Virus record (IMG/VR): IMGVR_UViG_3300032770_000011
Location: 39,400-103,399 of that record
Direction: 5' to 3' (one strand)
Source: a virus
Length of the DNA stretch: 64,000 nucleotides
Shown here piece by piece: positions 7,271 through 64,000 of the stretch. The notes below the pieces were generated by a model. That model worked only from the letters and a program-made list of their open reading frames with translations. It did no database searches and was not told where the DNA came from. The position numbers were made by a program, and so were the translations under genes. How positions within the stretch are numbered: the stretch's first letter is position 1; each line of letters starts with the position of its first letter.

Positions 7271-7342
7271 CTTTACGTCACCATAAAGTCACTCTCACCA
7301 CAGCGGATGAGAGGGTCAAAAGCCGGCAGACCGGATCTGAAG

Positions 7343-11199: not shown

Positions 11200-11979
11200 T
11201 CAGACTTCCTGCGGACGTCCGGCGTTGTGACCCTTCTTGCCGATCTTCTCCAAGCGCCCTTCGCCCGTAACTGCACCCGCCGTCATGTGATGCTTCTGAG
11301 AAGGCAGCCGCCCACCAGCAGCACGATGCTTCAAGGCAGAGGACTTCACCATACCCTTAATCATGGCACGGTCCTCAGCTTCGTCGGGGTGAGACACCTT
11401 ACCGCCCCGTTTGCGCGGCGGCATAGCGCCAGGAGGAATAGCCCCCGGAGGCGGCATTATCGGTGGGCGCATACCCATCGGACCGCCCGGAGGCATTGCA
11501 CCGGGAGGCATAGCCGGAGGAGCTCCTGGAGGCATTGCAGGGGGGCCGCCCGCAAGTACTGGGTTCGGTCCAGCCGGAGGCGTATTGCCAGAGGACTGCG
11601 GCGCGACGATAACGTTCACATGTGTTGCGCCTTTGCCTTTCATACGACCACCCCGCGCTCTGGAGGCGAGGGCTTGGTCTTTATTCGCAGTCTCGATTGG
11701 GGAGACGTCGCCACCCGTATCGCGGTGCTTCACTCTACCACCTTTGCGATAGGTAGAGACCGGATTGGCAGCTTTGGTCTTGCGGGCCGGGCGGTCACCC
11801 CGTGCTCTCGGAGCAGAACTGTCTACGCCAAAGCCGACAGCGTCTTCGTCGCCTTCGTGCTTTGACGCATTCACAGGTGCGTCCTTGTACATTTTCGGAT
11901 TCGCTGCACCGTAGTGCTCCGTCATTCTACGGAACTTGGCGGTGCTGGAATCCGCTGCTTCCTTCTTCATCGGGTGCAT
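11200..11979 (-). CDS. Pro/Gly/Lys-rich low-complexity protein
   Basis: RKGG/RARGG/RKRGG motifs, PPGAM repeats, HHMTAGA..GRLEKI tail. Confidence 0.65.
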   Translation of the reverse strand: MHPMKKEAADSSTAKFRRMTEHYGAANPKMYKDAPVNASKHEGDEDAVGFGVDSSAPRARGDRPARKTKAANPVSTYRKGGRVKHRDTGGDVSPIETANKDQALASRARGGRMKGKGATHVNVIVAPQSSGNTPPAGPNPVLAGGPPAMPPGAPPAMPPGAMPPGGPMGMRPPIMPPPGAIPPGAMPPRKRGGKVSHPDEAEDRAMIKGMVKSSALKHRAAGGRLPSQKHHMTAGAVTGEGRLEKIGKKGHNAGRPQEV

Positions 11980-24418: not shown

Positions 24419-24661
24419 CTATGTACCAAGTAGCTTGATAGAGACGGCTTTGGGACCTTTGCCGGGTACTGCTACGGCATCGAATTCCAGCTTGTCGCCT
24501 GCCTTCACAGGCAGTGTTATGCCAGACCGACGCAATTCATTGGCATGAATGAACACATCAGAGGCGCCATTCTCTCGTCTACAGAAGCCGAAGCCCTTGT
24601 CGTCATTGTAGAACTTGACGATACCCCAGGACCGTTCGGTAGGACTATCAACATTACTCAT
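24419..24661 (-). CDS. csp: Cold-shock domain protein
   Basis: GIVKFYNDDKGFGF (RNP1), DVFIH (RNP2), KGPKA. Confidence 0.9.
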   Translation of the reverse strand: MSNVDSPTERSWGIVKFYNDDKGFGFCRRENGASDVFIHANELRRSGITLPVKAGDKLEFDAVAVPGKGPKAVSIKLLGT

Positions 24662-24761
24662 CGGAATTCCCTCGATTTCGATATCACTGACACACTGCCT
24701 TGCCGCATAACGAGTAGACCTTTTATCCAAAGGCGACCACCGCATCGCGTAAACCCCCTAA

Positions 24762-25337
24762 TCAATGTCGCGTTCCTTTCCCATTGAGAGGAACTACACC
24801 TTCAGGTAATTTCATTCCGGGACTGATACCGAGCTCCGCAACATCCTTCCGGATTTCTTCCAGCAGCTGAGCAGCAGTCTTGTCCTCAATCTGACCCTTG
24901 TGTTCGTAATTGTAGACGTCGCGCCAGTTGTCCGGGCGGCGATTCTTCAGCCAGAAGATACAGGCAGTGACATCAGGCGCAAAGTGCTTGCGTACCGGAT
25001 AGCGAATAATCTCGCCGTCCTTCGTGACCTTCACTTCTTCGGTATCCACACTGTAACCGATTGCGCGGTGCGCTAGGGAACGTTCAACCCGGTCGTCCCA
25101 GGAGGATTTACCGTCCCGTAAGGCATCCCGGAAAGCCGGGAACTGATGCGACCAAGCTGCAATAGTCCAGGTAGAGACCCCGAAGAGGTTGGCGAGGTCA
25201 ACGTCGGTCGCGCCCAGAACACAATGCGCTTTCGCCATTCGGGCATATTCGGGGCGGTAAGTGCTAGGACGACCTACTGCACGCTTCGGCGGGGTAGCCT
25301 GAGCCTTCTTAGGCTGCTTGAGGCGATAGCGTTTCAT
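24762..25337 (-). CDS. terS: Terminase small subunit
   Basis: GRPSTYRPEY..LGATD.DLA..FGVS; PDVTACIFWLKNRRP. Confidence 0.8.
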   Translation of the reverse strand: MKRYRLKQPKKAQATPPKRAVGRPSTYRPEYARMAKAHCVLGATDVDLANLFGVSTWTIAAWSHQFPAFRDALRDGKSSWDDRVERSLAHRAIGYSVDTEEVKVTKDGEIIRYPVRKHFAPDVTACIFWLKNRRPDNWRDVYNYEHKGQIEDKTAAQLLEEIRKDVAELGISPGMKLPEGVVPLNGKGTRH

Positions 25338-25910: not shown

Positions 25911-27521
25911 TCAGCGGCGGGCGAAGTCCGCCATTACAGCCGGAGCAGCAGAGTCAAACCCTACCACGTCCAGCATTCCGGCATCATTCGGGTCGGCAAT
26001 CGTGAAGCCGGTCGAGGTCATTCCTACCACAACCAGTTTTGCCGGGATACCAGACTTCTGCCGATACTTCTGCAACGCAACCGGGGGGTGCATACTTCCT
26101 GCCCACGTTTCATTGTCGGTGAACACTTGGAAGACGTCAACCTCCAAGCGTTGCTCCATTGCGTAGATCATCGGCAAAGCGCAATCCGTTCCGCCAAAGT
26201 TGACGTTACGAGTACGCTGCAGAACGTCCTCCAAGGACATCTTGGCGCTGAGCCGCAAGTCCTTGAACCTGTCGGCAAAGGCCATGACATGCCAGTCCTG
26301 CTCGGTACGCATGACCGTCATAGCCATAGCCGCCGCTCCCGCACAGACTTCGAGCGGCGACCCCATCAACGGAGACGACATAGACCCGGAAACGTCCAGC
26401 CCAATCAGCGTCCGCTTGCCCGAAGGTTCAATCGTCTTGAAGGACAGGTAGAAAGCTTCCTCCAAGGCGTCCGCAACCTTCGGAATAGGCTTCCACGAGA
26501 GCGGCTCACTCTCGTCGTCAGTTCGCCTACGCCGCTGACCGGCAACGCTAGCTCCGGAATTGTAAGCCGCCTGCGCTACCAGCACATTAAACGGATGGAT
26601 ACGAGCCTTCTGAAGCTCATCCTGGTCCGCCAAACGCTCCACTACGGTTCGCACTGAAGGGCCGAGCGGCTTCAACGTACCGTAAGCCGTCATTGCGCCG
26701 AGGTTGCGGATAAGCGCCGTCAGACCCATATCCGGGAGCATGACTTCCCATACAGCCGGGTCCTTCTTGACCCAGGTCGGGATGGCTTCCCAAGGCAACT
26801 TGTACTCCCGAATCAAGTCGAGAAGCCGAGGAGACGACTTCTCCATCTTCATTGCTTCCTCGTGAGCAGCAATGATTTCCGGCAGCAGCTTCTCGTCGCC
26901 TTCCTTCAGCTTGCCCTTCAGCCAACGGTAAACCGGCTTGTTGGCGTCAGCGTAAGGCCGCGCCGTTTCCAGAAGCCGCTTATGGGTATAGTTACCCCGC
27001 GAGCGGTACTTCACACCCTGAAAGGCCACCGAAGCCGGGCTACGGTGATCGTACCAACGGGCCACTGCCCGCTTCAAGGCACGACCCCAGCCTCGCCCTA
27101 GCTTGCGGCAATCATCCACAAACTGGAACAAATGGGTTGACGTACGGCAAACACCCGAGAGGCTATTGAGCGCCAGCTGACGTACCTTGGGGTCCTTGTG
27201 CACAGCGCCAAGCGCCAGCGCAAAGATTGCGGCATCATTCTTCGGAGCGCGACCTTCGTGAGAGACCTCCACGATGGTCTGTACCGTCCGTGCCGGATCA
27301 GCCGCATAGCACCGGATAACGCAGGCAGCGTTCTCCTTCGTCAGTACCTTTGCCGACTGGTAATACGTATTGGAATCGCTTCCCAGGATCAGGAAGCGGT
27401 GCAATCGTGCAAAGTCATCGAGGGTGAAGACGAATCCGCCAGCGTTGTTCTTCACCTGACGAGGGTTCAGTGGCTCCGTCTGCGGAACCGGCTCAGACAT
27501 CAACTCAGCATAGCGCGACAT
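25911..27521 (-). CDS. rsr: Ro60/Rsr ortholog (TROVE + vWA)
   Basis: QVKNNAGGFVF..RFLILGS; RTSTHLF.F; GWGRALKRAV..WY; ALIRNLG; RIHP; MIDAS DVSGSM; GGTDC; TDNETW; VGFD. Confidence 0.95.
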   Translation of the reverse strand: MSRYAELMSEPVPQTEPLNPRQVKNNAGGFVFTLDDFARLHRFLILGSDSNTYYQSAKVLTKENAACVIRCYAADPARTVQTIVEVSHEGRAPKNDAAIFALALGAVHKDPKVRQLALNSLSGVCRTSTHLFQFVDDCRKLGRGWGRALKRAVARWYDHRSPASVAFQGVKYRSRGNYTHKRLLETARPYADANKPVYRWLKGKLKEGDEKLLPEIIAAHEEAMKMEKSSPRLLDLIREYKLPWEAIPTWVKKDPAVWEVMLPDMGLTALIRNLGAMTAYGTLKPLGPSVRTVVERLADQDELQKARIHPFNVLVAQAAYNSGASVAGQRRRRTDDESEPLSWKPIPKVADALEEAFYLSFKTIEPSGKRTLIGLDVSGSMSSPLMGSPLEVCAGAAAMAMTVMRTEQDWHVMAFADRFKDLRLSAKMSLEDVLQRTRNVNFGGTDCALPMIYAMEQRLEVDVFQVFTDNETWAGSMHPPVALQKYRQKSGIPAKLVVVGMTSTGFTIADPNDAGMLDVVGFDSAAPAVMADFARR

Positions 27522-27939: not shown

Positions 27940-28014
27940 TGGCAGGAGTGAAAGGATTTGAACCCTTACTAACGGAGTTGGAGGCCGTTGTGCTAGCCGT
28001 TACACTACACTCCC
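27940..28014 (-). tRNA. tRNA-Trp(CCA)
   Basis: Anticodon loop CTCCAAC; CCA end. Confidence 0.85.
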
Positions 28015-28020
28015 AAAGTT

Positions 28021-28096
28021 TGGTACTGCCTGCAGGTTCTGCCCCTGCCTAATGCGGTCCACAGCCGCACGCCATCACTAGATCGGCCTAGGCAGC
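28021..28096 (-). tRNA. tRNA-His(GUG)
   Basis: Loop CTGTGGA; A73; T-loop GGCAGAA. Confidence 0.8.
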
Positions 28097-28099
28097 ATT

Positions 28100-28171
28100 T
28101 GGTAGCGGCTAGGAGTGTCGAGCTCCTCTGTCGATCCTTATGAGAGACCGCTGTTCACCGGAACTGCCGCT
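28100..28171 (-). tRNA. tRNA-Met/Ile2(CAU), short D arm
   Basis: Loop CTCATAA; CCA end. Confidence 0.65.
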
Positions 28172-28173
28172 AT

Positions 28174-28247
28174 TGGTAGCGGGTGTAGGAATCGAACCCA
28201 CGTAGGCGGACTCAAAACCCGCCGTCCTGCCATTGAACGAACCCGCC
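28174..28247 (-). tRNA. tRNA-Gln(UUG)
   Basis: Loop TTTTGAG. Confidence 0.85.
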
Positions 28248-28256
28248 AAAGGTCTT

Positions 28257-28331
28257 TGGCAGTCCCTGCGGGTGCTGCCCCCGCTTCTCCGGTTTGAAGG
28301 ACCAGAATCCTAGCTGATAGACGAAGGGACC
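28257..28331 (-). tRNA. tRNA-Glu(UUC)
   Basis: Loop CCTTCAA; T-loop GGCAGCA. Confidence 0.8.
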
Positions 28332-28335
28332 GTAT

Positions 28336-28409
28336 TGGTGCGGACTGCGAGTGCTGCCCTCGCGACTTCGGTTTGGAAGACCGACACGTTGCTGTTACGC
28401 CAAGTCCGC
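28336..28409 (-). tRNA. tRNA-Gly(UCC)
   Basis: Loop CTTCCAA; T-loop GGCAGCA. Confidence 0.8.
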
Positions 28410-28410
28410 G

Positions 28411-28493
28411 CGGAGAGTTGTGAGCACGATTCACACACCGTTAGGTACAGATCGCTTAGCAGGCGGCTCCCGGCCCCGCCGGGTTAACTCTCC
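28411..28493 (-). tRNA. tRNA-Ser(GCU), no encoded CCA
   Basis: Loop CTGCTAA; long variable arm; G73. Confidence 0.7.
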
Positions 28494-28498
28494 ATAAT

Positions 28499-28575
28499 TG
28501 GTCTCGACGGGAGGACTCGAACCCCCACGCGGCAATTTAGGAAATTGCGGCTCTGTCCTGTTGAGCTACGTCGAG
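28499..28575 (-). tRNA. tRNA-Arg(CCU)
   Basis: Loop TTCCTAA. Confidence 0.9.
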
Positions 28576-28576
28576 T

Positions 28577-28652
28577 TGGCGCTCTCGGGAGGAATCGAAC
28601 CCCCATCTTTCCGCTTAGAAGGCGGACGCCTTGTCCATTGGACCACGAGAGC
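28577..28652 (-). tRNA. tRNA-Arg(UCU)
   Basis: Loop CTTCTAA. Confidence 0.9.
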
Positions 28653-28655
28653 AAT

Positions 28656-28729
28656 TGGAGGCGTGAGGCGGAATCAAACCGCCATGGGGTGGGTTGCAGC
28701 CACCAGCCTAGTCATTCGGCCATCACGCC
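28656..28729 (-). tRNA. tRNA-Cys(GCA)
   Basis: Loop CTGCAAC; U73. Confidence 0.85.
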
Positions 28730-28734
28730 ATTAT

Positions 28735-28808
28735 TGGCACCCACTCAGGGAATCGAACCCCGGTTCGCTGGTTCAGAGCCAGCCGTCCTGCCATTGAACG
28801 AAGTGGGT
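28735..28808 (-). tRNA. tRNA-Gln(CUG)
   Basis: Loop CTCTGAA. Confidence 0.9.
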
Positions 28809-28812
28809 AAAA

Positions 28813-28948
28813 GGACGAACGCAATAATGGATATCGGGGTTGAGGTTGGATTCGAACCAACGACCTTCTGGGGTATCCCAAACGCTCTACCACTGAGCTA
28901 CTCTCGCTGGGTTGTGGTGCGAGATAACCGAAATCCTGGGGCTCGTCC
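28813..28948 (-). ncRNA. Y RNA 4, tRNA arms in normal order (D, anticodon-like hairpin, T)
   Basis: GGACGAGCCCCAGGATTTCGGTTATC...CCGATATCC..TGCGTTCGTCC enclosing TAGCTCAGTGGTAGAGC then GTTGGTTCGAATCCAAC. Confidence 0.8.
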
Positions 28949-28952
28949 AAAT

Positions 28953-29028
28953 TGGTCAGGGTGCGGTGTTCTGCCCACCGTCCTCCGCGTTCCAAGCGCG
29001 GGGCTCTTCTAGCACGAGCTTCACCCTG
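28953..29028 (-). tRNA. tRNA-Pro(UGG)
   Basis: Loop CTTGGAA; T-loop GGCAGAA. Confidence 0.8.
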
Positions 29029-29035
29029 TTAATTT

Positions 29036-29112
29036 TGGCGATCCACCGAGGACTCGAACCCCGACCTGACTGATTCGTAGTCAGCCGCTCTATCCAGTTA
29101 AGCTAGTGGACC
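29036..29112 (-). tRNA. tRNA-Arg(ACG)
   Basis: Loop CTACGAA. Confidence 0.9.
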
Positions 29113-29117
29113 GGAAT

Positions 29118-29192
29118 TGGCACCGCCAGCGGGTTCCGACCCCGCTTCTTCTGATTGAGAATCAGAGATCCTAGCCAGTATACGATGGCGGC
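29118..29192 (-). tRNA. tRNA-Glu(CUC)
   Basis: Loop TTCTCAA. Confidence 0.8.
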
Positions 29193-29198
29193 AAGAAT

Positions 29199-29275
29199 TG
29201 GCTCCGGAGGTGGGTTTCGATCCCACATCGACATGCGTTAACAGCGCACCGTCCTTACCATTTGACTACTCCGGA
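29199..29275 (-). tRNA. tRNA-Asn(GUU)
   Basis: Loop CTGTTAA. Confidence 0.85.
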
Positions 29276-29838
29276 ATAAACTTTTGTCGAGACGCACGCT
29301 TGGCAGCTTCTACTCTAAGTGCTGCTAATCTTATTTTTTCTTTGTGTGCATTAGATAGATTTTTACCCTTGTTCCAAGATGGCTTTCCATATTGAGGATT
29401 ATTGCCTCCTAAACTAGCAGCCCGACGCGCAGCTAAAACTTTGCAACGATGTTCTTCATCAGTAAACCGTCTAAGATTGGCTGCCTTACCCCCCTTGCTA
29501 CGTGCACGCCTCATCTTAGCTTTAGGTAAAGAATTCAAGTCTAAGTTAAGTTTGTTTGTATTTATGTAACCAAAGCCGCCCTTGCCACCAGGGCAGAGAT
29601 TGTAACTCAGATCAGAATCACAAACCACTAACACCTTTTCGGCTAAGGTCATCTTCCATTCAACTTCGTAATGCCCTATAATCTCTGTTACAAAGTTTTC
29701 CAGGCCGTATTTAGTAATAGCCCTCAACAACAATTTGCCGGATCCCAAGTAACCATCGTTGATATTTTTAGTTTGGTGTTTTCCAACGTAGACCTTTCCG
29801 GTAACTAAACAGGTTGTTTTGTAAACAAGATAGTGCAT
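29266..29838 (-). CDS. Seg-like GIY-YIG homing endonuclease with NUMOD3-like tail
   Basis: LVYKTT..KVYVGKH..YLGSG; PSWNKGK.LS..HKEKI. Confidence 0.85.
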   Translation of the reverse strand: MHYLVYKTTCLVTGKVYVGKHQTKNINDGYLGSGKLLLRAITKYGLENFVTEIIGHYEVEWKMTLAEKVLVVCDSDLSYNLCPGGKGGFGYINTNKLNLDLNSLPKAKMRRARSKGGKAANLRRFTDEEHRCKVLAARRAASLGGNNPQYGKPSWNKGKNLSNAHKEKIRLAALRVEAAKRASRQKFIPE

Positions 29839-29904
29839 CTACTCACCTTTACAAAGAGGATGGGCCCACTATAGGTCCTGTTTTATCTTTCGTAAAGGTC
29901 TATG

Positions 29905-29973
29905 TGGAGACACCGGGTACCGCCCCCGGCGCGACGATCTTGCAAGGATCATCTGCACCCTTGTGCTGTCCCC
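29905..29973 (-). tRNA. tRNA-Ala(UGC), short D arm, no encoded CCA
   Basis: Loop CTTGCAA; G3:U70; A73. Confidence 0.75.
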
Positions 29974-29974
29974 A

Positions 29975-30050
29975 TGGTGCCTAGTTGTGGTTTCGATCCA
30001 CACTCTCTGCGTCTTCAGCGCAGCGCTTTCACCAGATTAGCTTACTAGGC
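29975..30050 (-). tRNA. tRNA-Phe(GAA)
   Basis: Loop CTGAAGA. Confidence 0.85.
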
Positions 30051-30054
30051 AAAA

Positions 30055-30128
30055 TGGTGCGGACACGGGGAGTCGAACCCCGGCCTCTACGTTGGCAACG
30101 TAGTAGACTTCCGTAATCCTTTGTCCGC
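30055..30128 (-). tRNA. tRNA-Gly(GCC)
   Basis: Loop TTGCCAA. Confidence 0.85.
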
Positions 30129-30133
30129 GTAGT

Positions 30134-30219
30134 TGGTGGGTCGGGGGTGAGTTGAACACCGTGCCACATAGGGAGCGGTTTTACAGACCGCCGACAGGAC
30201 CGCCCGTCCTTATTGACCC
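30134..30219 (-). tRNA. tRNA-Tyr(GUA), atypical acceptor/D region
   Basis: Loop CTGTAAA; CCA end; 5' end uncertain (30219-30224). Confidence 0.65.
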
Positions 30220-30228
30220 TTCCCATAT

Positions 30229-30304
30229 TGGTTGCGGGTGCGGGCCGATGCTCCCGCGTCTGATGGTTATGAGCCATCCGAGGCAACTTCTCCTCCAACC
30301 CGCT
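30229..30304 (-). tRNA. tRNA-Met(CAU), initiator-like 1:72 mismatch
   Basis: Loop CTCATAA; A1:A72. Confidence 0.7.
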
Positions 30305-30308
30305 ATCT

Positions 30309-30398
30309 TGGCGGAAGCGTGAGGGTTCGAACCCCGTACCTTTCGGTATCCGTGCAGGTTTTCAAGACCTGTTGCCGGCCACTCCAGCGGACGCTTCC
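30309..30398 (-). tRNA. tRNA-Ser(UGA)
   Basis: Loop CTTGAAA; long variable arm. Confidence 0.85.
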
Positions 30399-30404
30399 GA
30401 ATAA

Positions 30405-30481
30405 TGGTCGTCTGCTGGAGACTCGAACTCCAATCTCCCAGCTTCGGAGGCTGGCGCTCTGTCCGATTGAGCTAACAGACG
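30405..30481 (-). tRNA. tRNA-Arg(CCG)
   Basis: Loop CTCCGAA. Confidence 0.9.
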
Positions 30482-30485
30482 AAAA

Positions 30486-30863
30486 CTATTTCTTACCTTT
30501 CCGACGAACCTTACCCCGTGCGTCGAAAGCACCGTTTGGCCAAAAGCAATCCATCGTAACTCGGCCAATGAGACCGTCGTCAGTGAAGACCGCTGGTCCT
30601 CTCAAGGTAGAGCCGTCAACAGCTTGCTCGAAAGCAAGGTAAGACCCCCCTCTATCTGGTGACGAAGGATTGACGAAGAACAGGTCGATATCTGTTGGCT
30701 CATCAAGAGGTACCGGAACACCTGCTGCTTTGCAGGCATTGAACAGCTGCTCACGATACTGCTGGATTACAGCAAGATGCATTCTACGGTGCGGTGCGTC
30801 GTGAATCCACAACCGTAGGAGTGCCGGAAAGCTATCCGGAAGATATTTGACGATGATCTTCAT
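30486..30863 (-). CDS. Degenerate RusA-like protein within the tRNA array
   Basis: IDLFF..PD.......EQAVDG....V..DD.LI spacing; GAGGA RBS. Confidence 0.5.
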   Translation of the reverse strand: MKIIVKYLPDSFPALLRLWIHDAPHRRMHLAVIQQYREQLFNACKAAGVPVPLDEPTDIDLFFVNPSSPDRGGSYLAFEQAVDGSTLRGPAVFTDDGLIGRVTMDCFWPNGAFDARGKVRRKGKK

Positions 30864-30880
30864 TTACTCATCCTCTTAAT

Positions 30881-30975
30881 TGGTAGGCGTCGAGGGTGCT
30901 GCCCCCTCCCGTGTACTCTTATCTAGAGCGCATACCCGCTTATAAGGCGGACCCGCACGGCTGGTGCTGACGCCT
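30881..30975 (-). tRNA. tRNA with UAU anticodon and long variable arm
   Basis: AGGCGTC/GACGCCT-ACCA; loop CTTATAA; 95 nt. Confidence 0.75.
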
Positions 30976-30980
30976 GAATT

Positions 30981-31059
30981 TGGTCGGGGTGGCGTGATTT
31001 GAACACGCGGCCTCTCGGTTCCGAACCGAGAGCTCTGGACCAGGCTGAGCTACACCCCG
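30981..31059 (-). tRNA. tRNA-Pro(CGG)
   Basis: Loop TTCGGAA. Confidence 0.9.
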
Positions 31060-31065
31060 TTAAAA

Positions 31066-31140
31066 TGGCGACCCGTAGGGGTTTCGATCCCCTCTCACAC
31101 GCTCGACAGGCGTGCCGCCTCACCAGATGCGTAACGGGCC
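31066..31140 (-). tRNA. tRNA-Asp(GUC)
   Basis: Loop CTGTCGA. Confidence 0.85.
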
Positions 31141-31142
31141 TT

Positions 31143-31219
31143 TGGTGCGCGCAGGAGAATTTGAATCTCCAAACACGACGTTCTCAACGTCGCGGCTTTA
31201 CCGATTTGCCTATGCGCGC
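31143..31219 (-). tRNA. tRNA-Leu(GAG), short variable loop
   Basis: Loop TTGAGAA. Confidence 0.8.
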
Positions 31220-31224
31220 GAATT

Positions 31225-31298
31225 TGGTGGACCACCACGGTACTGACCCGTGTTCAACGGTTTAAGAGACCGTTGCATCACCTTAATGCTTGTGGTCC
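31225..31298 (-). tRNA. tRNA-Lys(CUU)
   Basis: Loop CTCTTAA. Confidence 0.8.
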
Positions 31299-31299
31299 G

Positions 31300-31378
31300 T
31301 GAACCCTGGAGGTTACGATCCTCTTGCGACTGGATTAAAAGTCCAGCGCCTATCCATTCGGCTTTACGCTCAGGGTCC
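31300..31378 (-). tRNA. tRNA-Lys(UUU), extra bases before D arm, no encoded CCA
   Basis: Loop CTTTTAA; GGACCCTG/CAGGGTTC. Confidence 0.7.
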
Positions 31379-31428
31379 GTGAACCCTTGCGTTTGCTTCC
31401 TTCGCTCATTTGTTGCATCCTTTCGAAT

Positions 31429-31502
31429 TGGTCCACCCTCACGGTAACGATCCGTGGTCGAGCGGTTATCAGCCGCTTGCTCTACCTTTGAGCTAAGGGT
31501 GG
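31429..31502 (-). tRNA. tRNA-Ile(GAU)
   Basis: Loop CTGATAA. Confidence 0.85.
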
Positions 31503-31508
31503 TTGAGT

Positions 31509-31583
31509 TGGTGCGCCTTGGCTGAATTGAACAGCCGACCTTCTGCATGTCACGCAGACATTCTTCCACTGAACTAAAGGCGC
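31509..31583 (-). tRNA. tRNA-Val(GAC)
   Basis: Loop GTGACAT. Confidence 0.85.
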
Positions 31584-31589
31584 AAGAAT

Positions 31590-31663
31590 TGGTAGGGGAT
31601 GACGGTACTGCCCCGCCTTTGCTGGCGTGTAAAACCAGTGCACTACTTTTGTGCTAATCCCCC
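31590..31663 (-). tRNA. tRNA-Val(UAC)
   Basis: Loop TTTACAC. Confidence 0.8.
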
Positions 31664-31664
31664 G

Positions 31665-31741
31665 TGGTACCCTAGGCAGGGTACGATCCTGCACTGAAAC
31701 GGGTTTAAGCCGTCTGCCTCTTCCAATTGGGCTACTAGGGC
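31665..31741 (-). tRNA. tRNA-Leu(UAA), short variable loop
   Basis: Loop CTTAAAC. Confidence 0.8.
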
Positions 31742-31746
31742 AAAAG

Positions 31747-31822
31747 TGGTAGGCGCGGCGTGATTTGAACACGCACTGTAGAGGGTTTGAGCCTCCTGTC
31801 TCTGCCGTTGGACTACGCGCCC
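31747..31822 (-). tRNA. tRNA-Leu(CAA), short variable loop
   Basis: Loop CTCAAAC. Confidence 0.85.
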
Positions 31823-31827
31823 GTATT

Positions 31828-31903
31828 TGGTAGCCGACCGGGGATTTGAACCCCGACTGATTGGTTCCTAAGACCAATGCCTCTACCGTTGGGCTAGTCG
31901 GCC
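31828..31903 (-). tRNA. tRNA-Leu(UAG), short variable loop
   Basis: Loop CTTAGGA. Confidence 0.85.
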
Positions 31904-31909
31904 ATGAAC

Positions 31910-31983
31910 TGGTGCTCCTACCTGGTTACGATCCAAGGTCTGCCCCTTACCAAAGGGCTGTTCTGCCATTGAACTATAGGAGC
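31910..31983 (-). tRNA. tRNA-Thr(GGU)
   Basis: Loop TTGGTAA. Confidence 0.85.
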
Positions 31984-31984
31984 G

Positions 31985-32055
31985 TGCCCCCACGAGGAAT
32001 TGAACCCCGTTCAACGCCTTACAAGAGCGCTGCATTGCCGTAATGCTTTGAGGGC
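31985..32055 (-). tRNA. tRNA-Thr(UGU), no encoded CCA
   Basis: Loop CTTGTAA. Confidence 0.8.
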
Positions 32056-32061
32056 GGGTAT

Positions 32062-32135
32062 TGGTGCCCTAACCGTGAATTGAACACGGCTCTCCGCGTT
32101 ACGAGGGCGGTGCATCACCGCAATGCTTCTAGGGC
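32062..32135 (-). tRNA. tRNA-Thr(CGU)
   Basis: Loop CTCGTAA. Confidence 0.8.
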
Positions 32136-33592: not shown

Positions 33593-34642
33593 TTAGGAAG
33601 CCCTACGACGGTCTCTCAGGCGGCTTAGGCTAGCTCGGGCCTGGGTCGTCGGGGATTCCTCTTCCTCGCCCTTCTGAGCCCGAGAGCGACCCCTTCCTTC
33701 GGGCTCCGGTTCCTCAGGCTCCTCAGTACGGGTTGCCCGCCTACGGCTGCCTTCAAACGGCGGGTCTTCCTCCTCAACGGCAGCGCGTCGCCGCTCCAGC
33801 CGAGAACTACGGGGTTCCGGCTCCGGCTCTTCCGCTTCTTCGCGGCGCGACCGGCGAGGGGGTGCTTCCTCCTCGGTTTCCTCAGTAGCCAACCGCCGAC
33901 GGCCCCGGACGGTACCAGTCTCCTCCTCAGGTTCCTCTTCCTTATGGCGGGCTGACTTCTTGCCGAAGAGCACCTTCTCGATGTGCTCAGCTTCGTAGAA
34001 ATGCAGAACGGACGGCAGTGGGTTTTCCGTAATGTAGTCCAGCCACTTGTCCTGCAGCTTCTGGTCCTCGTGAATCGGCGAAGGGTCGCGCACGATCTCG
34101 ACGGCCTTGTAGTCCGTATTGATAGTCGTACCTACGCGATTGAAGACGATATCGAAGCCTTCCTCCGGGTCGTCCACCAGAATAGGCGCACGGGTTTTCT
34201 TGTCGGTGGATCGCGCATAGATCTCATTACGCACTTTGGCAAAGGGCATCTGCCAGATCTGTGGCCCGGTACGCTCGTCGTCTCGGTCAATAATCCAGCA
34301 GATTGCCCCCTTGGAAACGCGGAGAGCGTCGGCTTCCTCCTTGTCGGCAGCGCCACGCTGCGCTTCGCAGACTGGGCAAGGCTCACCCTTCATCTTGTCC
34401 AGACACAAGTAGGTGACTTCATCTGGACCGACATTGCGATGGAAGTAGATGATGTAGTCCCAGTCCGGCTCGTCCCAGGTGGAGGGCAGAATGCGGATAC
34501 AATTCTCGCCTTCCTTCGCCTTGAAGATCGGAATGCCCGACTTGAAAATGCTATCGTAGTCCCGGGTACCTTCCGAAGCCTTCCGCGAGATATCCTCCGA
34601 AGTTCTTTCCGAACCCCGGTAAACGAACTTACTCTTGGCCAT
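33593..34642 (-). CDS. gp32-like ssDNA-binding protein with long Glu/Arg tail
   Basis: EGENCIRILP; CPVCE; DPEEGFDI. Confidence 0.7.
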   Translation of the reverse strand: MAKSKFVYRGSERTSEDISRKASEGTRDYDSIFKSGIPIFKAKEGENCIRILPSTWDEPDWDYIIYFHRNVGPDEVTYLCLDKMKGEPCPVCEAQRGAADKEEADALRVSKGAICWIIDRDDERTGPQIWQMPFAKVRNEIYARSTDKKTRAPILVDDPEEGFDIVFNRVGTTINTDYKAVEIVRDPSPIHEDQKLQDKWLDYITENPLPSVLHFYEAEHIEKVLFGKKSARHKEEEPEEETGTVRGRRRLATEETEEEAPPRRSRREEAEEPEPEPRSSRLERRRAAVEEEDPPFEGSRRRATRTEEPEEPEPEGRGRSRAQKGEEEESPTTQARASLSRLRDRRRAS

Positions 34643-34818
34643 TCTGTCCTCCGTCTAAATGCTTCAAGACCGAACGAAGATACTCCAGCTTCGTCCGGAA
34701 ATAGGCAAAACTGGCGCTGCGCACAATAGCGTAAGCAAGTACGATAAGTCCGAGTCCGAAGGCTACGTACATAACGCCGTTCTGAATTGCTGAACTAGCC
34801 ACAACTGAAAACATACCT

Positions 34819-56534: not shown

Positions 56535-56672
56535 TCACGGCATCCAGCAGTGCCCAGCGTGTGGGCCGGACGTATAGCGTTGTCCCGTTGCACATCCCGT
56601 ATCGCTCACCGTCGAGGCGCACCCAGCGAGGAGTAATACGATGGCGAGCCAACAGAGAAGACGACAATGCAT
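56535..56672 (-). CDS. 45-aa predicted lipoprotein (absent from ORF track)
   Basis: MHCRLLCWLAIVLLLAGCAST, lipobox LAGC. Confidence 0.55.
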   Translation of the reverse strand: MHCRLLCWLAIVLLLAGCASTVSDTGCATGQRYTSGPHAGHCWMP

Positions 56673-59600
56673 AGCGGCCTATTCTGACTTAGGATGAAGG
56701 ACCTCGGCGGCTTGCCTCGTCAGGCCGCATTGGTCCATTTCACGGATGATGTTTTCGAGACGCGCGATCTCGGAATTTCGCTTTTCAAGGACCGTCGTTA
56801 AGTCCCGGATCAGACCGCGTTGCTCGGCTATCTTTTCGGCGTCCAACATCGGCGGCCTAATTCTTCAAGTTTGATGTTGCAACATCTTGGACAAAGCGAA
56901 GCGCCATTGCGGTGCTGTCGCTGCTCTCGGAGCGGTTATCCTCGCACACCGTTTTGATCTGGTTGAGCGCCTTTTGATATTTCGTCGCTCGCTCTTTCCA
57001 CATCTCAAGGCCGGCAAGCCTATCCTCGGCAATGTTTTGCCAAGCGCGGGCGCTTGTCTCAGGCGGGATATGCGCGCCAGCCATCGCGGGGATTTCACGG
57101 GTGCTCATGATTGGGCCTATTTTGACTTTCTGCGCTTTGGTTCCGGCAGCGCCGCCGATGGTACGTCAAAGCAGGTTGCAAACTTTCCGCAGACCTCACA
57201 TGGACCACGGCTCTGTGGCGTCCAAAAATCTTGCGGCCAGTCGTTTTTCTCAGCACATTTTTCGCAGTAGAACATGGCGGGGTGATCCTTCAACGAGCGG
57301 CGAGGCCAGCGGCCAGCGCGCGCTGCATGAGTTTGTAGAGATTGCTATCCTTGTCGCTATCGACGCCATAGCCGGCGATGCAAGCCGCCTGTATCATCGC
57401 GTCAGTGATTTCGACAGGATCGCTTTCGCGCGGCCCATTAAGGGCGCGATCAATTTCGTCCGGCGTGCCGATTCCTCGTGGCATGGCTGTGGCCTTTACC
57501 TCGTTCCTGATACTACCCTATCCGCAAATCGAAGATCGGCTATTGCCTCCGCAATCAGTTTACTAATTTCTTCTTGCGAGGCGTCTTGCAGCGTTTTTCC
57601 CTTGGCTTGGAGCTGCGCCATCACACAGACCATAACCATGTTCTTATCAATCATCTGCGGCCAGCCGTATTAGTGATTGCCACGCCCTTGACCGTCATCG
57701 TCTCGGTTAGCGTATAGACGCCAACAGTGACAGTCTCGCCAAGCTCGGCGGCTTCATTTCGTCGGTTGCTTTCACGGCGGCCTCTATATTTAGAATGTTC
57801 CAGCTTCGCTGACGTGCCGACCGGCATCGTCATAAACGTGCGACTTAAGCATTTCGCCGCTCTTGGTGTTGGCCCATTTGATGGCTTCTTCTTTGGTGTC
57901 GTAATCGCCGTGAACCCAATCTCCGCCGTCGAACGTATCGACACAGATAACTCGAAACTTGCCCTTGGGCGCGGCGCGGCTGAATTGCTCATCGATGCCG
58001 CGATTGCCGCCTTCGCTTACTGGTCTTGGGTCATATGGCATGGCTTCGTCCTATTTTGCTTTTGCGTGTTCGCGGTACGCCGCAGCGACGGCTTCGGTCA
58101 ACGCTGCTGAGTTATCTAGCGCGACACTTACGGCAAACTCTCCGTCTTTCGTTGCCTGTTTCGATGCTTTGCGGAGGCGATCCGTCGCATCCTGCCACAC
58201 CGCTGAGTGTTCTGCTGCGTTCATAGTTGGGCCTCCTCTGACAATTATTTGGCGGCAAATTCCGCGATGGCTTCCTTGGCGACTTTCTGCGGATCGGCAC
58301 ATCCTTCCGCGATCATCATAAGGCGGACTCCGTAGCGGTCGATCTGCCGCTGCTTCGCCTTCTCGCGTGACGAGATGCAATCCGCGGGCACGATGTTGGC
58401 CAGTTCCAGATAAAGCTTGCAGAGCGTTTCCATGTTCACTTTGCTTTCTCCGACGCCAATACCGCACGGACTTGGCCCATTGCGAAGTCGCCCTGTGGGG
58501 AACTTAGAAGCTTTTGCTCCCGGCGCGTAAGGCGCTCGCCAGCCAGTAGCTTATCGGCGGCAATCTCGATCATTTCGTCGGTTGCTTTCACGGCGGCCTA
58601 TTTCGCCAATGCGGCGACCTCCGGTTTGAGTTCGGTCAATTCGATGTCCTCGGCCTCGTCAAGCTGGTTCACCATATCGTCGTAGTTGACGTAGGGCTCA
58701 AGCAGATTATCGATTGCCCGGCCATCTCCCGGCTCGGCGTCACATAGGCGATTATATTCGTCAATGACCGCCTGCGGCACGTCTACGGTGCATTGGCAAA
58801 AGCCGCTGATTTCGTAGTTCAGTCTTACCTTTGGCATGGTCGGGGGTCCTCTGACAATCAAAACGGCGACGAATCGCCGCTCGGAGATTCGGTGTTATTG
58901 CAATCGAAGCCTCCGTGCGACCGGCGCGGAGTTTTTCTCGCCTCGACATCAGCGTAAGCCAAGGCCGTGCGGATTGTCTCAATCGGGCCGGGATGAACGA
59001 CCGCGCGTTGCTGTTCCAGCCAATCGCGCGCCTCTCGGATTTCTTTTGCGGTGAGCATGGCTGCGGCCTACTATGACAGCGGTGGCGGGGTTGGAATGGT
59101 AAACGGCATCCAGTGCGTCGGCGGATTGAGCGGTTCGTAAAACCCGTCCTCGTCCCGGTCAGCCTCAAGCCATCGGCCTTCGCACAGAAAACCGCGACTG
59201 ACCCATCTAATGGGATTGCCGTCGCCGTCATTTGTGACGCCGGTCAGCCATACTTCTAGGCCCTCGTCCGGCGGCGTATCTATTGGTTTCCAGTCGCTCA
59301 TGATCGGCCTACTCATTCAATTTGATAAAGCCGTTCCCGCCACATGGTTCACATCCTTCCTCAAAATTACCCGATTGAGAGCGGACAATCCCAAAACCTT
59401 TACAGTCAGGACAAAGTTGTGTCGGAGCATCTGTCCATCCAGTAAACGATAAAAGAAGTTCACGTAGTTTGGTCACGGACGACTCGGGGCACTCATCGTC
59501 GTATTGCAATGAGCACAGAGCCTCTTCAATTGCCGCCGGCAACGTTTCCGCGCGGGTTACAATTGGGTCGGCTTCATCAACGGGAATTAAAAGACTTTCA

Positions 59601-59826
59601 GTCATTTCGGCGGGCTCTATATTCAACTCGGGGTGATCGGGCGCGGAGCCCAATGGTGGATGCAATGCTCCGGCAGCCGGTGTCCGTTGATAACGACTAA
59701 CCAAGGTTCGTCCGGCTTAAATTCGGACGGAGCGTAGGCGGCTTCAAAAATAGCGCCGTGATAGACGCCACCAACCGCTAGGATATGGGTGCCATCTTTC
59801 GGCGCTGTTTCGGCTCGCTGCCACAT
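56535..59826 (-). other. Left array of about 16 small genes (45-100 aa), junctions mostly TAGGCC/AGAGG
   Basis: e.g. 56679..56849, 56857..57108, 57117..57275, 57290..57484, 57496..57654, 57790..58041, 58245..58439, 58858..59058, 59623..59826. Confidence 0.7.
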
Positions 59827-59980
59827 CTTCGGCCTATTTTCTCAAGAGTGTTTCTAAGAAACCATACTAACCCTTTAATTCGGCAGAACCAAGATACCTC
59901 TTAACTAAAGCTGATATATACCCTAAAACAAGGCATACGGCTAAGTTTTATTCTAAGCACGTTTGCAAAATAGGGTGAAA

Positions 59981-60580
59981 ATGGGGTATCTTGTAGGTTA
60001 CGCACGAGTTTCAACCGAAGACCAAAAATTGGACCTTCAACTAGACGCTCTCAGAAGAGCAGGCGTTAAGCCAGACAACCTTCACGTCGAAAAGGTCTCA
60101 GGTGCTTCTACGAAACGTCCGGCGCTGGATTTGGCTATCAAGGATCTTCGAGAAGGCGATACGTTTGTGGTCTGGCGATTAGACCGCCTTGCTCGATCCA
60201 TGCGCCAACTTTATGCCCGATTAGATCAGATCTACGCCAAGGGCGCTTACTTTCGCAGCATAACTGAGAATTTTGACTTTGGAACCGCCAGCGGAAAGCT
60301 TATACTAGGAGTGTTAGGCTTAGTTGCCGAGTTTGAGCGGCAGATCATAGCCCAACGAACTTCTGCTGGAATAGCTGCGCTGCGAGAGCGCAGCAAAGAC
60401 AAACACTGGGGCCGTAAGTTGTACATGACGCCAGAACGAATAAAGAAAGTAGGAGAACTGCTGAATAGTGGTCTGAGTGGACCAAAAGTGGCAAAGAGGC
60501 TGGGCGTCTCTACCGCCTCGATTTACGGCTTCTGGAAGCAAGTTGGTCATGGTAAGTATGTTAGAAAGAAGCGAAAGTAG
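59981..60580 (+). CDS. Small serine recombinase (resolvase/invertase family)
   Basis: VGYARVSTEDQ; RPAL; VVWRLDRLARS; AEFER..I.QRT.AG; C-terminal HTH. Confidence 0.95.
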   Translation: MGYLVGYARVSTEDQKLDLQLDALRRAGVKPDNLHVEKVSGASTKRPALDLAIKDLREGDTFVVWRLDRLARSMRQLYARLDQIYAKGAYFRSITENFDFGTASGKLILGVLGLVAEFERQIIAQRTSAGIAALRERSKDKHWGRKLYMTPERIKKVGELLNSGLSGPKVAKRLGVSTASIYGFWKQVGHGKYVRKKRK

Positions 60581-61806
60581 CCGCGATTAGTGGCAAAGAT
60601 TAGGAGTTTGAATTGGCTGCGCTGGTCATTGAGCCGAAAGCAAACGATGACATGATCGAGGGCTATAAAGACGGCCGCGATCTGACAGCGCCGGTGCCAT
60701 CGGCCAATCGGTCACGAAGCTATCGTCATGGCTTCGCAGTAGGACGCGCTGAGAAAGAGAATCGACGACTGGGATCATTTGATGAAGTGATGCGCATGGC
60801 AGACGAAGCCATGCGCTTAGACCAGTTGGATTAACAGGAGTTTGTCATGCGCGATCCGCTTATAGTTGCCGAGGAACACTACCAACGCGTCTATGGCGAT
60901 CTTGCTAAGACGCAGGCGGAATTAGACTCGGTGCAGGCGATCATGCGCGATTTGATCGACCGCAGAACACGCCTCAAATGCGATTTGGCAAACGCGTGGG
61001 GCGAACGTGAAATGGCGAAAGCAGAACGTAACAAGCTGGTCCGAGAAGGACTGCTGTCACTTTAGGAGCACCTGTGTACGAGGAACAAATTCTCAAACTA
61101 CAAAACCGTGCAGATGGCATCGCCGCGTGGCTCGATGAGAATTGTCCTTACGTCTTTGTCGATCAAAAACACCTCGACGAAAAAACAGTCGAGCGATCTT
61201 ATTGGCACTACGGCTACCGCGCCGCGCTTGAAGATGTGATCCACCTCGTTCGCCACGGTGGCGAGCTAAAATAGGAGAATCCGATGCTTGAGATAGATCG
61301 CAAAGCGCAACACCGATTGATGGCGCTCGATGCCACCAACAAAATCCAAGAGGCGGTCGGCCTCGACGACAAGTGGAAGGGGCTGATCGAGAACACGATC
61401 TATACGCTATGCGAGGACTGCTATCGGCGCGGCGTTCAATATCCGCCTCAGACAATTTAGGAGCGATCATGACGGCGACAGCCCAATCGCTACGCGAAGC
61501 GGCCACAGAGTTTGAACGCCTCACGGCACCCGACCGATTGCCGACGCTCGACGAAGTGCACCGTTGGGTTCGGTCCAATCCCTTGACCGCCGTTGACCTT
61601 GTACTGGACTTAGTTTTCGCCGGACATGTAGCCGATGGAGAATTGAGCGACGGGCGGTTGCGTGAACTTTGGAAAGAATGCGGTGCGTCTATCGATAAAC
61701 GTGGCCGCGCCTTTATCGAGGCTCACTTGTTGCCGCGCGTGCTTCGACTCATTATCGAAGCCAATAACAAATTGTCCGCAAAGAGAACGAGGTAGAGGAG
61801 CGACCG

Positions 61807-62172
61807 ATGGTCGCCTATAGCTTTCAAGGTCGATTTGCCGCCGCCGTGGAAAGCGGCGCGAAACATCAAACCATCCGCGCCAACGGAAAGCGCCGGCACG
61901 CGAAGCCAGGGGACAAGCTGCAACTCTATACAGGGATGCGGACAAAGGCATGTCATAAGCTGCGTGATGCGGTCTGCCATGACGCCTGCCCGATTACGCT
62001 GGACCGTGATCGCGTGACAACTTTCCACCCGCAAGAATTTCTCGATCCTGAGATGATCGCCAAGCTGGACGGCTTTTCATCGTGGGTCGAGATGCGCGAC
62101 TGGTTCGAGAAAATGCACGGGCTACCATTCAGCGGGACGATGATCCGCTGGCTGGTCCCGTTGGAAAAATAG
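61807..62172 (+). CDS. ASCH/PUA-like protein
   Basis: F...VESGAKHQTIR..KPGDKLQLYTGMR; AKLDGF. Confidence 0.7.
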   Translation: MVAYSFQGRFAAAVESGAKHQTIRANGKRRHAKPGDKLQLYTGMRTKACHKLRDAVCHDACPITLDRDRVTTFHPQEFLDPEMIAKLDGFSSWVEMRDWFEKMHGLPFSGTMIRWLVPLEK

Positions 62173-63747
62173 GAGTTTCGTTTGACCGTTATTCTAGATA
62201 TTACGCAGGGTAAAAGTCGGTCGCAACTTGCCGACGACTATCTGCGTTGTTCGCGTGCTGCATTCCATTGGCAACGTATTGCGATGGCATTGATCGAAGC
62301 TGCACCCGATGCTGTATCTAAAATACCGCAGGAATATCGTGCCGAGATTGAACGGCTAATCGAAGCTTACAAAGATTGAATATAGAGGAGACCGGCAATG
62401 AAAGCGTGGGCGATCAAGCACTGGCGCGGCGGTCTCTATATCGACACTGTGCGGCGTACCCGTCGCGAGGCCATCGACACCTTCTTGCAAAACTTTTTCC
62501 GCGGCTCTGCATCGTCGCGTCGCAAGAAATGGAATGATGACAGAAAATATCACGTTCACCGCGTTGTTCGCGTTAATGTCGAAACAGATTAGGAGTGCCG
62601 ACGATGACTCTTGAAGATCAATGGTTCAAAAACGCTGAACGGCAAAACAAAGAAATATCCGATGCAGAAGCAAAGTTTTTTGCGAAGTTAAAGCAGAGAA
62701 AATGTTGTCAACCAAAAGCGGTTGCAATAATTCGCCTCAATAGAGATAGAAAATATTTACGCAGTCGATTAGTGAGACTACAAGCAGATTTAATTCGCAG
62801 CGGGTGGCGTCTCAAAATTGATTTTACCGACGACGGCTTGGTTCGCTTTAACTTGGTGTCAGAATAGGAGGCCGGAATGGACTGGATCGAGATTGTAGAG
62901 GATGGCGAGAATATCACATCCAAAATGCCGCCTGACGAAACCATCGTCGAGGTCAAACTTAAGGACGGCACAATCTGTCCGGCTTGGTACTCGCAGAATA
63001 TTCAAGAAGCGGGCGACTGGGATTTCGTGCCGATTGAGCCGGGGACAGATGAGCCTGATTTAATGGCCGATAGCCTCGCTGCGAACGTAGCCGCGTGGCG
63101 TCCGCTAAACGCCACGATATAGAGGAGTTTGACGTGGCCGCCGACCGTGAATATCTTTTCAATTATCGGTTTGCAGGCGACGAGTGGGGCATAACGATCT
63201 TTGCGACGAATGCTGCCGAAGCAAAAGAGAAGATCAAGGCCGTCGCCTTGGCGCGCTACGAAGGCGAGGTTGGAATAAAAATTCCTGCATTCACTGGCGC
63301 TGGCATCATCGCCAAGACAGTGACGTGGTTAAAAAATCGAACGAGGTAGAGGAGATTTCCATGACTGCATGGCGCTGGCAGCGGATTTGGCAAGTCAAGG
63401 GCTGGTCGATGATGCTGACCTATGGCCAGAACTTTGTGATTGGCTTCGGCACTGGAAATAGTTGGCTTGCAATTCGCGTGAACGGCATTTGGATTTCGTT
63501 GGGTCCGCTGACTTTCGACATTCAGCCGCCGATGCCAAAGTGGATGCGAGACGAGGTTAATGCGCCGCAGGTCACGAGATAGAGGAGCGGCCAATATGGT
63601 AATCGGGACAATTGGATTTTTTGTTTTAGCTCTATTCGCTGCCAGTTTTAATAATCCGTGGGCCGCGCTTGTATTCTTGGCGATAAGCTATGGGTTGTTC
63701 GCGGCAATATCGTTCGGATATTATCACGCATAAAAGGAGCGGATTCC

Positions 63748-64000
63748 GTGGTCGCATATAGTTTTCAAGGTCGATTTGCTGATGCGGTGGAGCGCGGAGA
63801 GAAGCGCCAGACGATCCGCGCTAACGGCAAGCGCCGGCATGCGAGGCCTGGCGACAAGTTGCAGCTCTACACCGGGATGCGGACAAAGGCATGTCATAAG
63901 CTGCGTGATGCGGTCTGCCATGACGCCTGCCCGATTACGCTGGACCGTGATCGCGTGACAACTTTCCACCCGCAAGAATTTCTCGATCCTGAGATGATCG
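63748..64000 (+). CDS. Second ASCH/PUA-like copy, truncated at window edge
   Basis: GTG start; VAYSFQGRFADAVERGEKRQTIR; last 127 nt identical to 61933..62059. Confidence 0.75.
   Translation, partial: MVAYSFQGRFADAVERGEKRQTIRANGKRRHARPGDKLQLYTGMRTKACHKLRDAVCHDACPITLDRDRVTTFHPQEFLDPEMI

Follow-up and report, generated by a model that had tools for sequence, protein, structure and literature searches.

In T4-type phages, promoter-early stem-loop (PeSL) elements consist of sigma70-like promoters together with terminator stem-loops (Arbiol et al. 2010, PMC2839356; Comeau et al. 2014, PMC4122927). PeSL mini-circles have been physically demonstrated, and phage homologous recombination is the proposed driver (PMC2839356, PMC4122927). 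The region considered here comprises positions 56535 to 64000 of a window (the whole 64-kb stretch of DNA that was analysed) which is the final 64 kb of G000, the single 103,399-bp contig of a wetland phage. It is the divergent, promoter-proximal part of this uncultured phage, in which two polycistronic strings of tiny accessory genes leave a 154-bp control region, the rightward string being headed by the gene of a small serine recombinase. The tiny genes are joined by a short motif containing a TAG stop codon, and we consider it probable that these junctions are translational-coupling joints that also mark or promote gene-by-gene exchange in a PeSL-like manner. PeSL-mediated modular shuffling is the closest known mechanism, with the same logic and a different repeat. 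As with PeSL, a short conserved regulatory repeat lies between small, mostly ORFan early genes in hyperplastic regions. Unlike PeSL, the repeat is a stop codon fused with a ribosome-binding site in polycistronic operons that show no excess of promoters or terminators, and the exchange is between phages of unrelated backbone and is known here from assembled contigs alone.

Other described systems share single features with the region. In compact phage operons, the upstream stop codon can overlap the Shine-Dalgarno sequence located 5-9 nt before the next start, which provides translational coupling, as at the TAAGGAG junctions of T7-like phages. The sites used by small serine recombinases have dyad symmetry and span about 26-30 bp, and topology limits these enzymes to resolution or inversion. 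In the systems Gin, Cin, Pin, and Min of p15B, the DNA between dyad-symmetric sites of 26 bp is inverted, so that the 3' ends of a single tail-fibre gene are shuffled. The Tn3/gamma-delta resolvase autoregulates at res, between divergent genes. The small early genes of phages hold much of their host-takeover and anti-defence repertoire, and the turnover of these genes is poorly understood outside T4-like phages.

The junction motif and its probable role in translation

The left arm (56535..59826, minus strand) contains 16 tightly packed open reading frames (ORFs) of 37-98 aa. The right arm (60581..64000, plus strand) contains 13 complete small ORFs (45-121 aa, from 60613) and one that is cut by the contig end, and it extends over contig positions 1-613 and further. 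A first-pass annotation of the window had described about 30 tiny genes in two arms diverging from the recombinase; the 16 leftward and at least 13 rightward ORFs agree with this count, but the "left arm" is merely the promoter-proximal 3.3 kb of a leftward block of about 90 kb.

Right-arm junctions consist of AAUAGGAG or UAGAGGAG, followed after 5-8 nt by a start codon, so that the stop codon lies within the Shine-Dalgarno sequence. At 12 of the 14 right-arm junctions, it is TAGGAG or TAGAGGAG that stands 5-8 nt before the start codon, and 11 of the 14 right-arm genes (the recombinase and the 13 complete ORFs) terminate in TAG. The left-arm junction is AAUAGGCC, which includes a weak Shine-Dalgarno. 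Seven left-arm junctions have TAGGCC, 3-6 nt, and a start codon, and four further ones carry the variants TAGAGGCC, TAGAGCCC, TAAAGGCC, and TAGGAC. The motifs quoted in the first-pass annotation were found as described there and are oppositely oriented in the two arms, i.e., GTCA(G/A)AATAGG at 62858+, 56688-, and 57126-, GAACGAGGTA at 61785+, 63339+, and 57506-, and TGAATATAGAG at 62377+ and 59625-.

Comparison with ordinary junctions revealed a marked enrichment. Seven of the 18 minus-strand copies of TAGGCC in the genome lie within the 3.3-kb left arm (binomial p 8e-7), each 3-6 nt ahead of a start codon, and 13 of the 32 plus-strand copies of TAGGAG lie within the 7.2-kb right arm (p 8e-8), as do all five plus-strand copies of TAGAGGAG. 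Junctions elsewhere in G000 differ, most of them being overlaps of the ATGA or TAAATG type, in which the stop is TGA or TAA. The motif is likewise found ahead of the opening gene of each arm, with no gene terminating there (59836-, 59970+, 60601+), and after long gaps, such as CATAGGAGA at contig positions 1191, 1786, and 2421. Because it precedes genes without an upstream neighbour, the motif is likely to be primarily an initiation signal.

The same arrangement recurs in other phages. In 14 phages, 86 right-type motifs stand ahead of an ORF of 25 or more codons. In 75 of these (87%), the upstream ORF terminates in frame at the TAG of the motif, where reading frame alone would predict one third; for left-type motifs the count is 12 of 15. 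The three positions from -3 to -1 before the stop have A contents of 74%, 55%, and 62%, with AAA as the commonest last codon, which accounts for the observation that unrelated proteins end alike (four ORFs in ..TR* and two in ..SE*). The first-pass annotation had reported these endings and taken them to indicate selection on DNA, and the last 2-3 codons before the stop are indeed constrained at the nucleotide level. When junctions from different phages are paired, the 8 nt preceding the stop agree at 7 or more positions in 80 of 4567 pairs; with 8-mers located 40 nt further upstream as the control, the count is 4 of 4567, a 20-fold difference. The conserved junction core spans 8-16 nt and has no dyad symmetry. 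An Rfam search of the arms gave no hits, and neither promoter-like (7 versus 5.6 expected) nor terminator-like sequences (13 versus 9.3 expected) are in excess there.

Right-type junctions have the features associated with translational coupling, namely GGAG or GAGGAG with a spacing of 5-8 nt and an in-frame stop. Left-type junctions have the same spacing and stop arrangement, and only their AGG is able to pair. Accordingly with the T7-type overlaps, the upstream stop is in or beside the Shine-Dalgarno of the next gene; unlike them, the junctions are extremely stereotyped in their use of UAG and their A-rich last codon, they occur in two arm-specific versions, one with a crippled Shine-Dalgarno, and extended types are shared across unrelated phages. 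The motif may thus be viewed as a compact coupling signal, in which A-rich last codons and a UAG stop embedded in the ribosome-binding site would be followed after 5-8 nt by the start codon, with a strong Shine-Dalgarno (AAUAGGAG/UAGAGGAG) in the right arm and a weak version (AAUAGGCC) in the left arm. Amber read-through joining neighbouring ORFs was considered and rejected: the gaps are not multiples of three, and none of the 27 tRNA genes clustered at window positions 27940-32135 has an amber-suppressor anticodon.

Single-gene blocks and arrays in other phages

A pattern search identified a second phage, G001 (IMG/VR 3300032954_000010), of 66,452 bp, which is present as an 80x contig in the sample holding G000 at 18x. 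Its leftward small genes are joined by TAGGCC, TAGAGGCC, or TAGAGCCC and its rightward ones by TAGGAG. The two phages are otherwise unrelated in backbone, yet they share single-gene DNA blocks with 88-100% identity. On the minus strand, 57491..57662 of G000 is 98.8% identical to G001 6381-6552, the homology running from GGCCGCAG-ATG to just past TAAAGGCC. On the plus strand, 61268..61447 is 94% identical to G001 9990-10169, with its 5' end at TAGGAG and its 3' end 13 nt inside a gene, and 62865..63127 is 100% identical to G001 11481-11743, exactly from TAGGAGG to TAGAGGAG, and comprises one 81-aa gene. A further block, contig 200-407, is 88% identical to G001. At the protein level, the 57-aa gene at 58051..58224 (minus strand) has a homologue with 62% identity in the left arm of G001 (7298-7480), in the same relative order.

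As for PeSL, the repeats delimit the replacements and indels seen between phages. Six of the eight ends of the G000/G001 DNA blocks lie on the motif and two lie inside the 3' ends of genes, while a 97% identical block shared by the phage loci L075 and L087 has both ends at the motif. The first-pass annotation had proposed that whole genes are added, removed, or reordered at the junctions. These blocks support the junctions as sites of addition, removal, and replacement; reordering is not supported, since the five genes common to G000 and G001 are colinear and keep both arm and orientation.

The most likely mechanism is an ordinary one, in which translational coupling is combined with junction-bounded mosaic exchange. 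Single genes would be replaced, lost, or gained at the joints between co-infecting phages, with gene order and orientation preserved. The joints could serve as exchange points because nearly every one of them shares the same 8-16 nt. Exchange might proceed by general recombination or by recombination at microhomologies, or recombination might be random and its products sorted by selection; G000 itself encodes RuvC-like, SbcD-like, and SbcC-like recombination proteins. If the joints do promote exchange, translation signals would double as recombination linkers, a simple and general route to modular evolution. The 81-aa gene provides a worked example, being 100% identical in two otherwise unrelated co-occurring phages and cut from ribosome-binding site to ribosome-binding site.

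Arrays of this kind are a trait of a family of uncultured phages, which assembles its early operons from interchangeable units with one stereotyped joint. The complete genomes G002 and G003, which have terminal repeats, contain arrays with GTCAAAATAGGAG, CACGATATTTAGGAG, and AAGGTAGAGGAG junctions. A PF00239 search gave no hit in either genome, while the same search was positive in three controls. In G001, the position of the recombinase is occupied by a non-homologous gene of 188 aa; at the thresholds applied, BLASTP, Pfam, and PHROGs revealed no similarity between this first rightward gene and the recombinase. G001 does encode a serine recombinase of 237 aa (34088-34801; L043), 27% identical to that of the window and located 26 kb from the arrays. 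In loci L081 and L174, TAGGAG is used in both arms.

A search of IMG/VR with the pattern GAACGAGGTARAGG...ATG returned 26 loci, all chance matches except G001, and the only homologue of the 81-aa gene outside G001 is fused and in an unrelated context (L047). Among the cultured phages of INPHARED, blastn found nothing that matches the region at the DNA level. None of 37 IMG/VR loci with relatives of the helicase (24-55% identity) has the recombinase or motif arrays nearby; at this identity they are too distant for a test of gene order. Outside the arrays, G000 and G001 share further single-gene blocks, contig 11361-11624 and 8778-9092 of G000 versus 24518-24782 and 26503-26814, with 84.5% DNA identity and 54-71% protein identity, 11361-11624 of G000 being in reverse orientation.

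The serine recombinase and alternative readings

The product of the first gene of the right arm (59981..60580, plus strand) is a small serine recombinase of 199 aa, with a likely ATG start at 59981; the left arm starts 154 bp away. It matches PF00239 (E value 1.7e-39; 135.7 bits; residues 11-144 of the 205-aa version of the ORF) and phrog_125, annotated as "DNA invertase" (E value 3.5e-58). The alignment includes an intact YARVST catalytic motif and LDRLAR. The C-terminal helix-turn-helix (HTH; PF02796) scores 22.7 bits (E value 1.1e-4), below the cut-off of 23.8, and no NCBIfam equivalog was matched at its cut-off.

The search for homologues covered IMG/VR, metagenomes, plasmids, cultured phages, and 185,579 prokaryote species genomes. 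Those with 60-91% identity are located almost exclusively on phage-like contigs. The best matches among cultured phages are Gin/Cin/Pin/Min-type invertases with about 40% identity, the cultured phages as a set reach about 43%, plasmids reach at most 49%, and the prokaryote species yielded only two hits of at least 60%, both on array-bearing contigs. Those recombinase genes of relatives that were translated directly proved intact. The recombinases differ by 23-33% at the DNA level, and their flanking genes are nearly all unrelated. The enzyme belongs to a phage-restricted, strongly conserved clade which usually heads such arrays and is not required for an array to exist. Right-type junctions occur downstream of recombinases with at least 70% identity at 1.87 per kb, versus 0.06 per kb for those below 55% (over 319 kb); the corresponding values for left-type junctions upstream, on the opposite strand, are 0.37 and 0.05 per kb.

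The first-pass annotation had pointed to the recombinase as a candidate agent of gene movement. Recombinase-driven cassette shuffling is unsupported: arrays exist in G001, G002, and G003 without this clade, the junction core is short and lacks dyad symmetry, and in one lineage (L083-L086 and L094) the homologue, which is 62% identical (about 5001-5573 of L085/L086), reads YARVFT, with Phe in place of the catalytic Ser. The identical Phe-containing protein is found in five contigs from different samples, one of them binned as a Beijerinckiaceae metagenome-assembled genome, and still heads arrays. The recombinase may therefore be independent of gene turnover.

Several observations run counter to coupling joints with junction-bounded exchange as a full account. 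The array design is about 30-fold enriched beside recombinases with at least 70% identity relative to those below 55%, an association that would be unexplained if the recombinase were simply carried along; the common ancestry of an early-region module could, however, produce it. Rare rearrangements would escape data that consist of contigs only. In the left arm, AAUAGGCC pairs with the anti-Shine-Dalgarno via AGG only, yet the CC is conserved across several phages. The point made by the first-pass annotation, that TAGGCC is a poor Shine-Dalgarno and that coupling is therefore not a full explanation, still stands. Finally, the left-arm word occurs eight times, away from start codons, in non-coding DNA of the right arm, within a gap of 589 nt (contig 597-1021, locus L073). 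Two questions are thereby raised, i.e., why a conserved serine recombinase found only in phages heads the arrays, and what the Shine-Dalgarno-crippled AAUAGGCC does.

The copies in this gap include TAGGCC, TAGAGGCC, TAGGGCC, and AAATAGGCCC, as well as TAGGCCTAGGCC at 966-977 and a 21-nt palindrome, CTGAAATAGG-C-CCTATTTCAG, at contig 746-766, which is one of only four in the genome with 10-nt arms. They surround an occurrence of the phage promoter word TGCCGAATTA, rightward in orientation, near position 800. Eight non-coding copies, including a palindrome, make a function of the left-arm word beyond ribosome binding probable, and together with the conserved CC they suggest a protein that reads this word on DNA or RNA. 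It is conceivable, if rather unlikely, that the junction word and especially AAUAGGCC is mainly the recognition site of a phage RNA- or DNA-binding regulator which co-ordinates the left operon, with ribosome binding being secondary. Candidates would be a translational repressor, a processing nuclease of the RegA/RegB kind, or a transcription factor, possibly the HTH of the recombinase itself; the retention at array heads of the homologue lacking the catalytic Ser suggests a binding role. However, no candidate regulator was identified, some related phages (L081, L174) have TAGGAG in both arms, the distance from motif to start fits a Shine-Dalgarno, and the whole window shows no excess of ATAGGCC (6 copies versus 5.9 expected).

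Integrons offer the model for a second alternative. Like them, the region has a conserved recombinase gene beside a promoter and promoterless, unrelated single-gene units in one orientation. The recombinase would cut and rejoin within the AAUAGG core; single genes would be excised as circles and inserted at a different junction, which could also lie, in trans, on a co-infecting phage such as G001. The clade-specific association with arrays (1.87 versus 0.06 junctions per kb) would be expected under such a scheme, as would a recombinase that is 75-91% conserved amid flanking genes that are nearly all unrelated, block ends on the motif, and the duplicated genes and truncated junction remnant found within the arrays (see below); the 21-nt non-coding palindrome could be a dimer-binding site. 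Nevertheless, we regard the scheme as improbable. Integrons rely on the IntI tyrosine recombinase, attI, and attC, whereas this recombinase is of another family and no attC-type structured site or imperfect palindrome is present at the cassette boundaries, the junctions being 8-18 nt long, without dyad symmetry and without an Rfam hit. A core of 8-16 nt also contrasts with the dyad sites of about 26-30 bp used by the serine family, and the palindrome has an odd centre, unlike a crossover site with a 2-bp stagger. Arrays lacking any resolvase domain (G002, G003) or this clade (G001), the lineage with Phe at the catalytic Ser, and the two of eight block ends inside genes argue in the same direction. 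The same cassette was not found at different array positions, either among the five genes of G000 and G001 or among 13 arrays, which have few gene families in common. A general class of phage-restricted small serine recombinases that service promoterless single-gene cassettes, with the AAUAGG(AG/CC) joint as the crossover core and movement in trans also to array phages without a recombinase, would be a similarly long shot.

The evidence bearing on inversion is more one-sided. Downstream of recombinases with at least 70% identity, right-type junctions predominate over left-type ones (1.87 versus 0.07 per kb). On the minus strand upstream, the left type occurs at 0.37 and the right type at 0.20 per kb, and the right-type copies there come largely from uniformly right-type arms such as those of L174 and L081. 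With colinear blocks and junction types hardly mixed within a transcription unit, there is no sign of inversion or reordering, contrary to the candidate whole-gene shufflon of the first-pass annotation. No rearranged form or inverted joint of G000 was found in the assembled contigs of two wetland runs, contigs being the only data searched. Two larger joints seen on the stretch in run contigs were explained by G001's own sequence, and a joint from 58592 to 59063, a junction-to-junction loss of two genes within GCGGCCTA, was too weak to count, since the contig of run X2 that carries it has a depth of 2 and reaches only 23 nt beyond the joint on one side. Stretches that no run contig covers are not counted as evidence. 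One gene pair of L076 and L078 is located on opposite sides, but it is only 73% identical. No inverted repeat in G000 is longer than expected by chance (maximum 17 nt; degenerate sites could escape this search), and no conserved inverted repeat surrounds the recombinase in seven phages. Short inverted junction copies do exist: in G000, 59833-59840 pairs with 59967-59974, and L074 has a perfect pair of 12 nt.

A whole-gene shufflon, in which the invertase would flip the segment between left and right junctions sharing an inverted AAUAGG and so move genes between transcription units, can be all but dismissed, because beyond these copies of 8-12 nt and a best PHROG match named "DNA invertase" it would predict mixed junction types, altered arm or order of the shared genes, longer inverted repeats, and inverted joints, and these are largely or wholly lacking. 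The protein resembles Gin, Cin, Pin, and Min in being a phage-encoded small serine recombinase of the resolvase/invertase family; unlike them, it heads an early operon, with no such sites or inverted repeats found and no inversion seen. Judged by the defining features of each, the region belongs neither to the invertase multiple-inversion systems nor to the shufflons or the integrons.

Control region, contig layout, and duplicated genes

The divergent intergenic region (59827..59980) contains a leftward copy of the recurrent promoter word of the phage, TGCCGAATTA, and AAAATAGG before the first gene on either side. A different, conserved divergent control region is present about 60-110 nt upstream of the recombinase start in L074-L080 and L087, and at 7975-8005 of G001. 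It contains a TTGACA(N1-9)TGTCAA inverted repeat of variable spacing, flanked on both sides by a TATA-like box, and a further TTGACAACTTGA copy, the third, stands directly before the recombinase start in the relatives. G000 lacks the TTGACA...TGTCAA region and has its own promoter type in its place. A small serine recombinase gene beside a divergent control region with such repeats (L074-L087, G001) recalls the res site of Tn3/gamma-delta. Because TTGACA...TGTCAA equals the -35 consensus of two back-to-back promoters, the repeats may be promoters only.

The G000 contig is circular or circularly permuted, since its last 253 bases and first 107 are the halves of one 121-aa gene, about 6 nt being missing at the break. 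The end of the window is thus an assembly break within a duplicated gene, and the right arm resumes at contig position 1. The plus-strand genes begin with the recombinase, continue over the break, and end at contig position 8420, and the rest of the genome, about 90 kb, is all minus-strand. Beyond the left arm, the leftward block encodes a DnaB-like helicase, an SNF2-like helicase, and then structural genes. Past its small genes, the right arm encodes RuvC-like, Cas7-like, SbcD-like, and SbcC-like proteins.

The split gene is the second of two 121-aa paralogues (63748..64000, then contig 1-107; plus strand). The first, at 61807..62172 (plus strand), belongs to phrog_8581, of unknown function. 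The ends of the two share a perfect direct repeat of about 235 bp (window 61933-62166 versus 63874-64000 plus contig 1-101; about 1.9 kb apart), to which the contig break can be attributed. In the source run, the Logan contig of the repeat has a depth of 36 and its flanks 18, which indicates that the duplication is real. A junction remnant is located at 57707..57786 (minus strand), where TAGAGGCC is followed by an ORF of 22 codons; the gene at 58591 has the same junction and the same initial 7 codons (GTG AAA GCA ACC GAC GAA ATG). Duplicated genes are also found in the arrays of other phages. That of L080 contains two copies of a homologous 164-aa gene (5849-6343 and 8532-9026), and the array of the recombinase-free G002 (L282 5658-5837 and 6728-6907, read on the minus strand) contains a tandem duplicate of a 59-aa gene with identical junctions on both sides.

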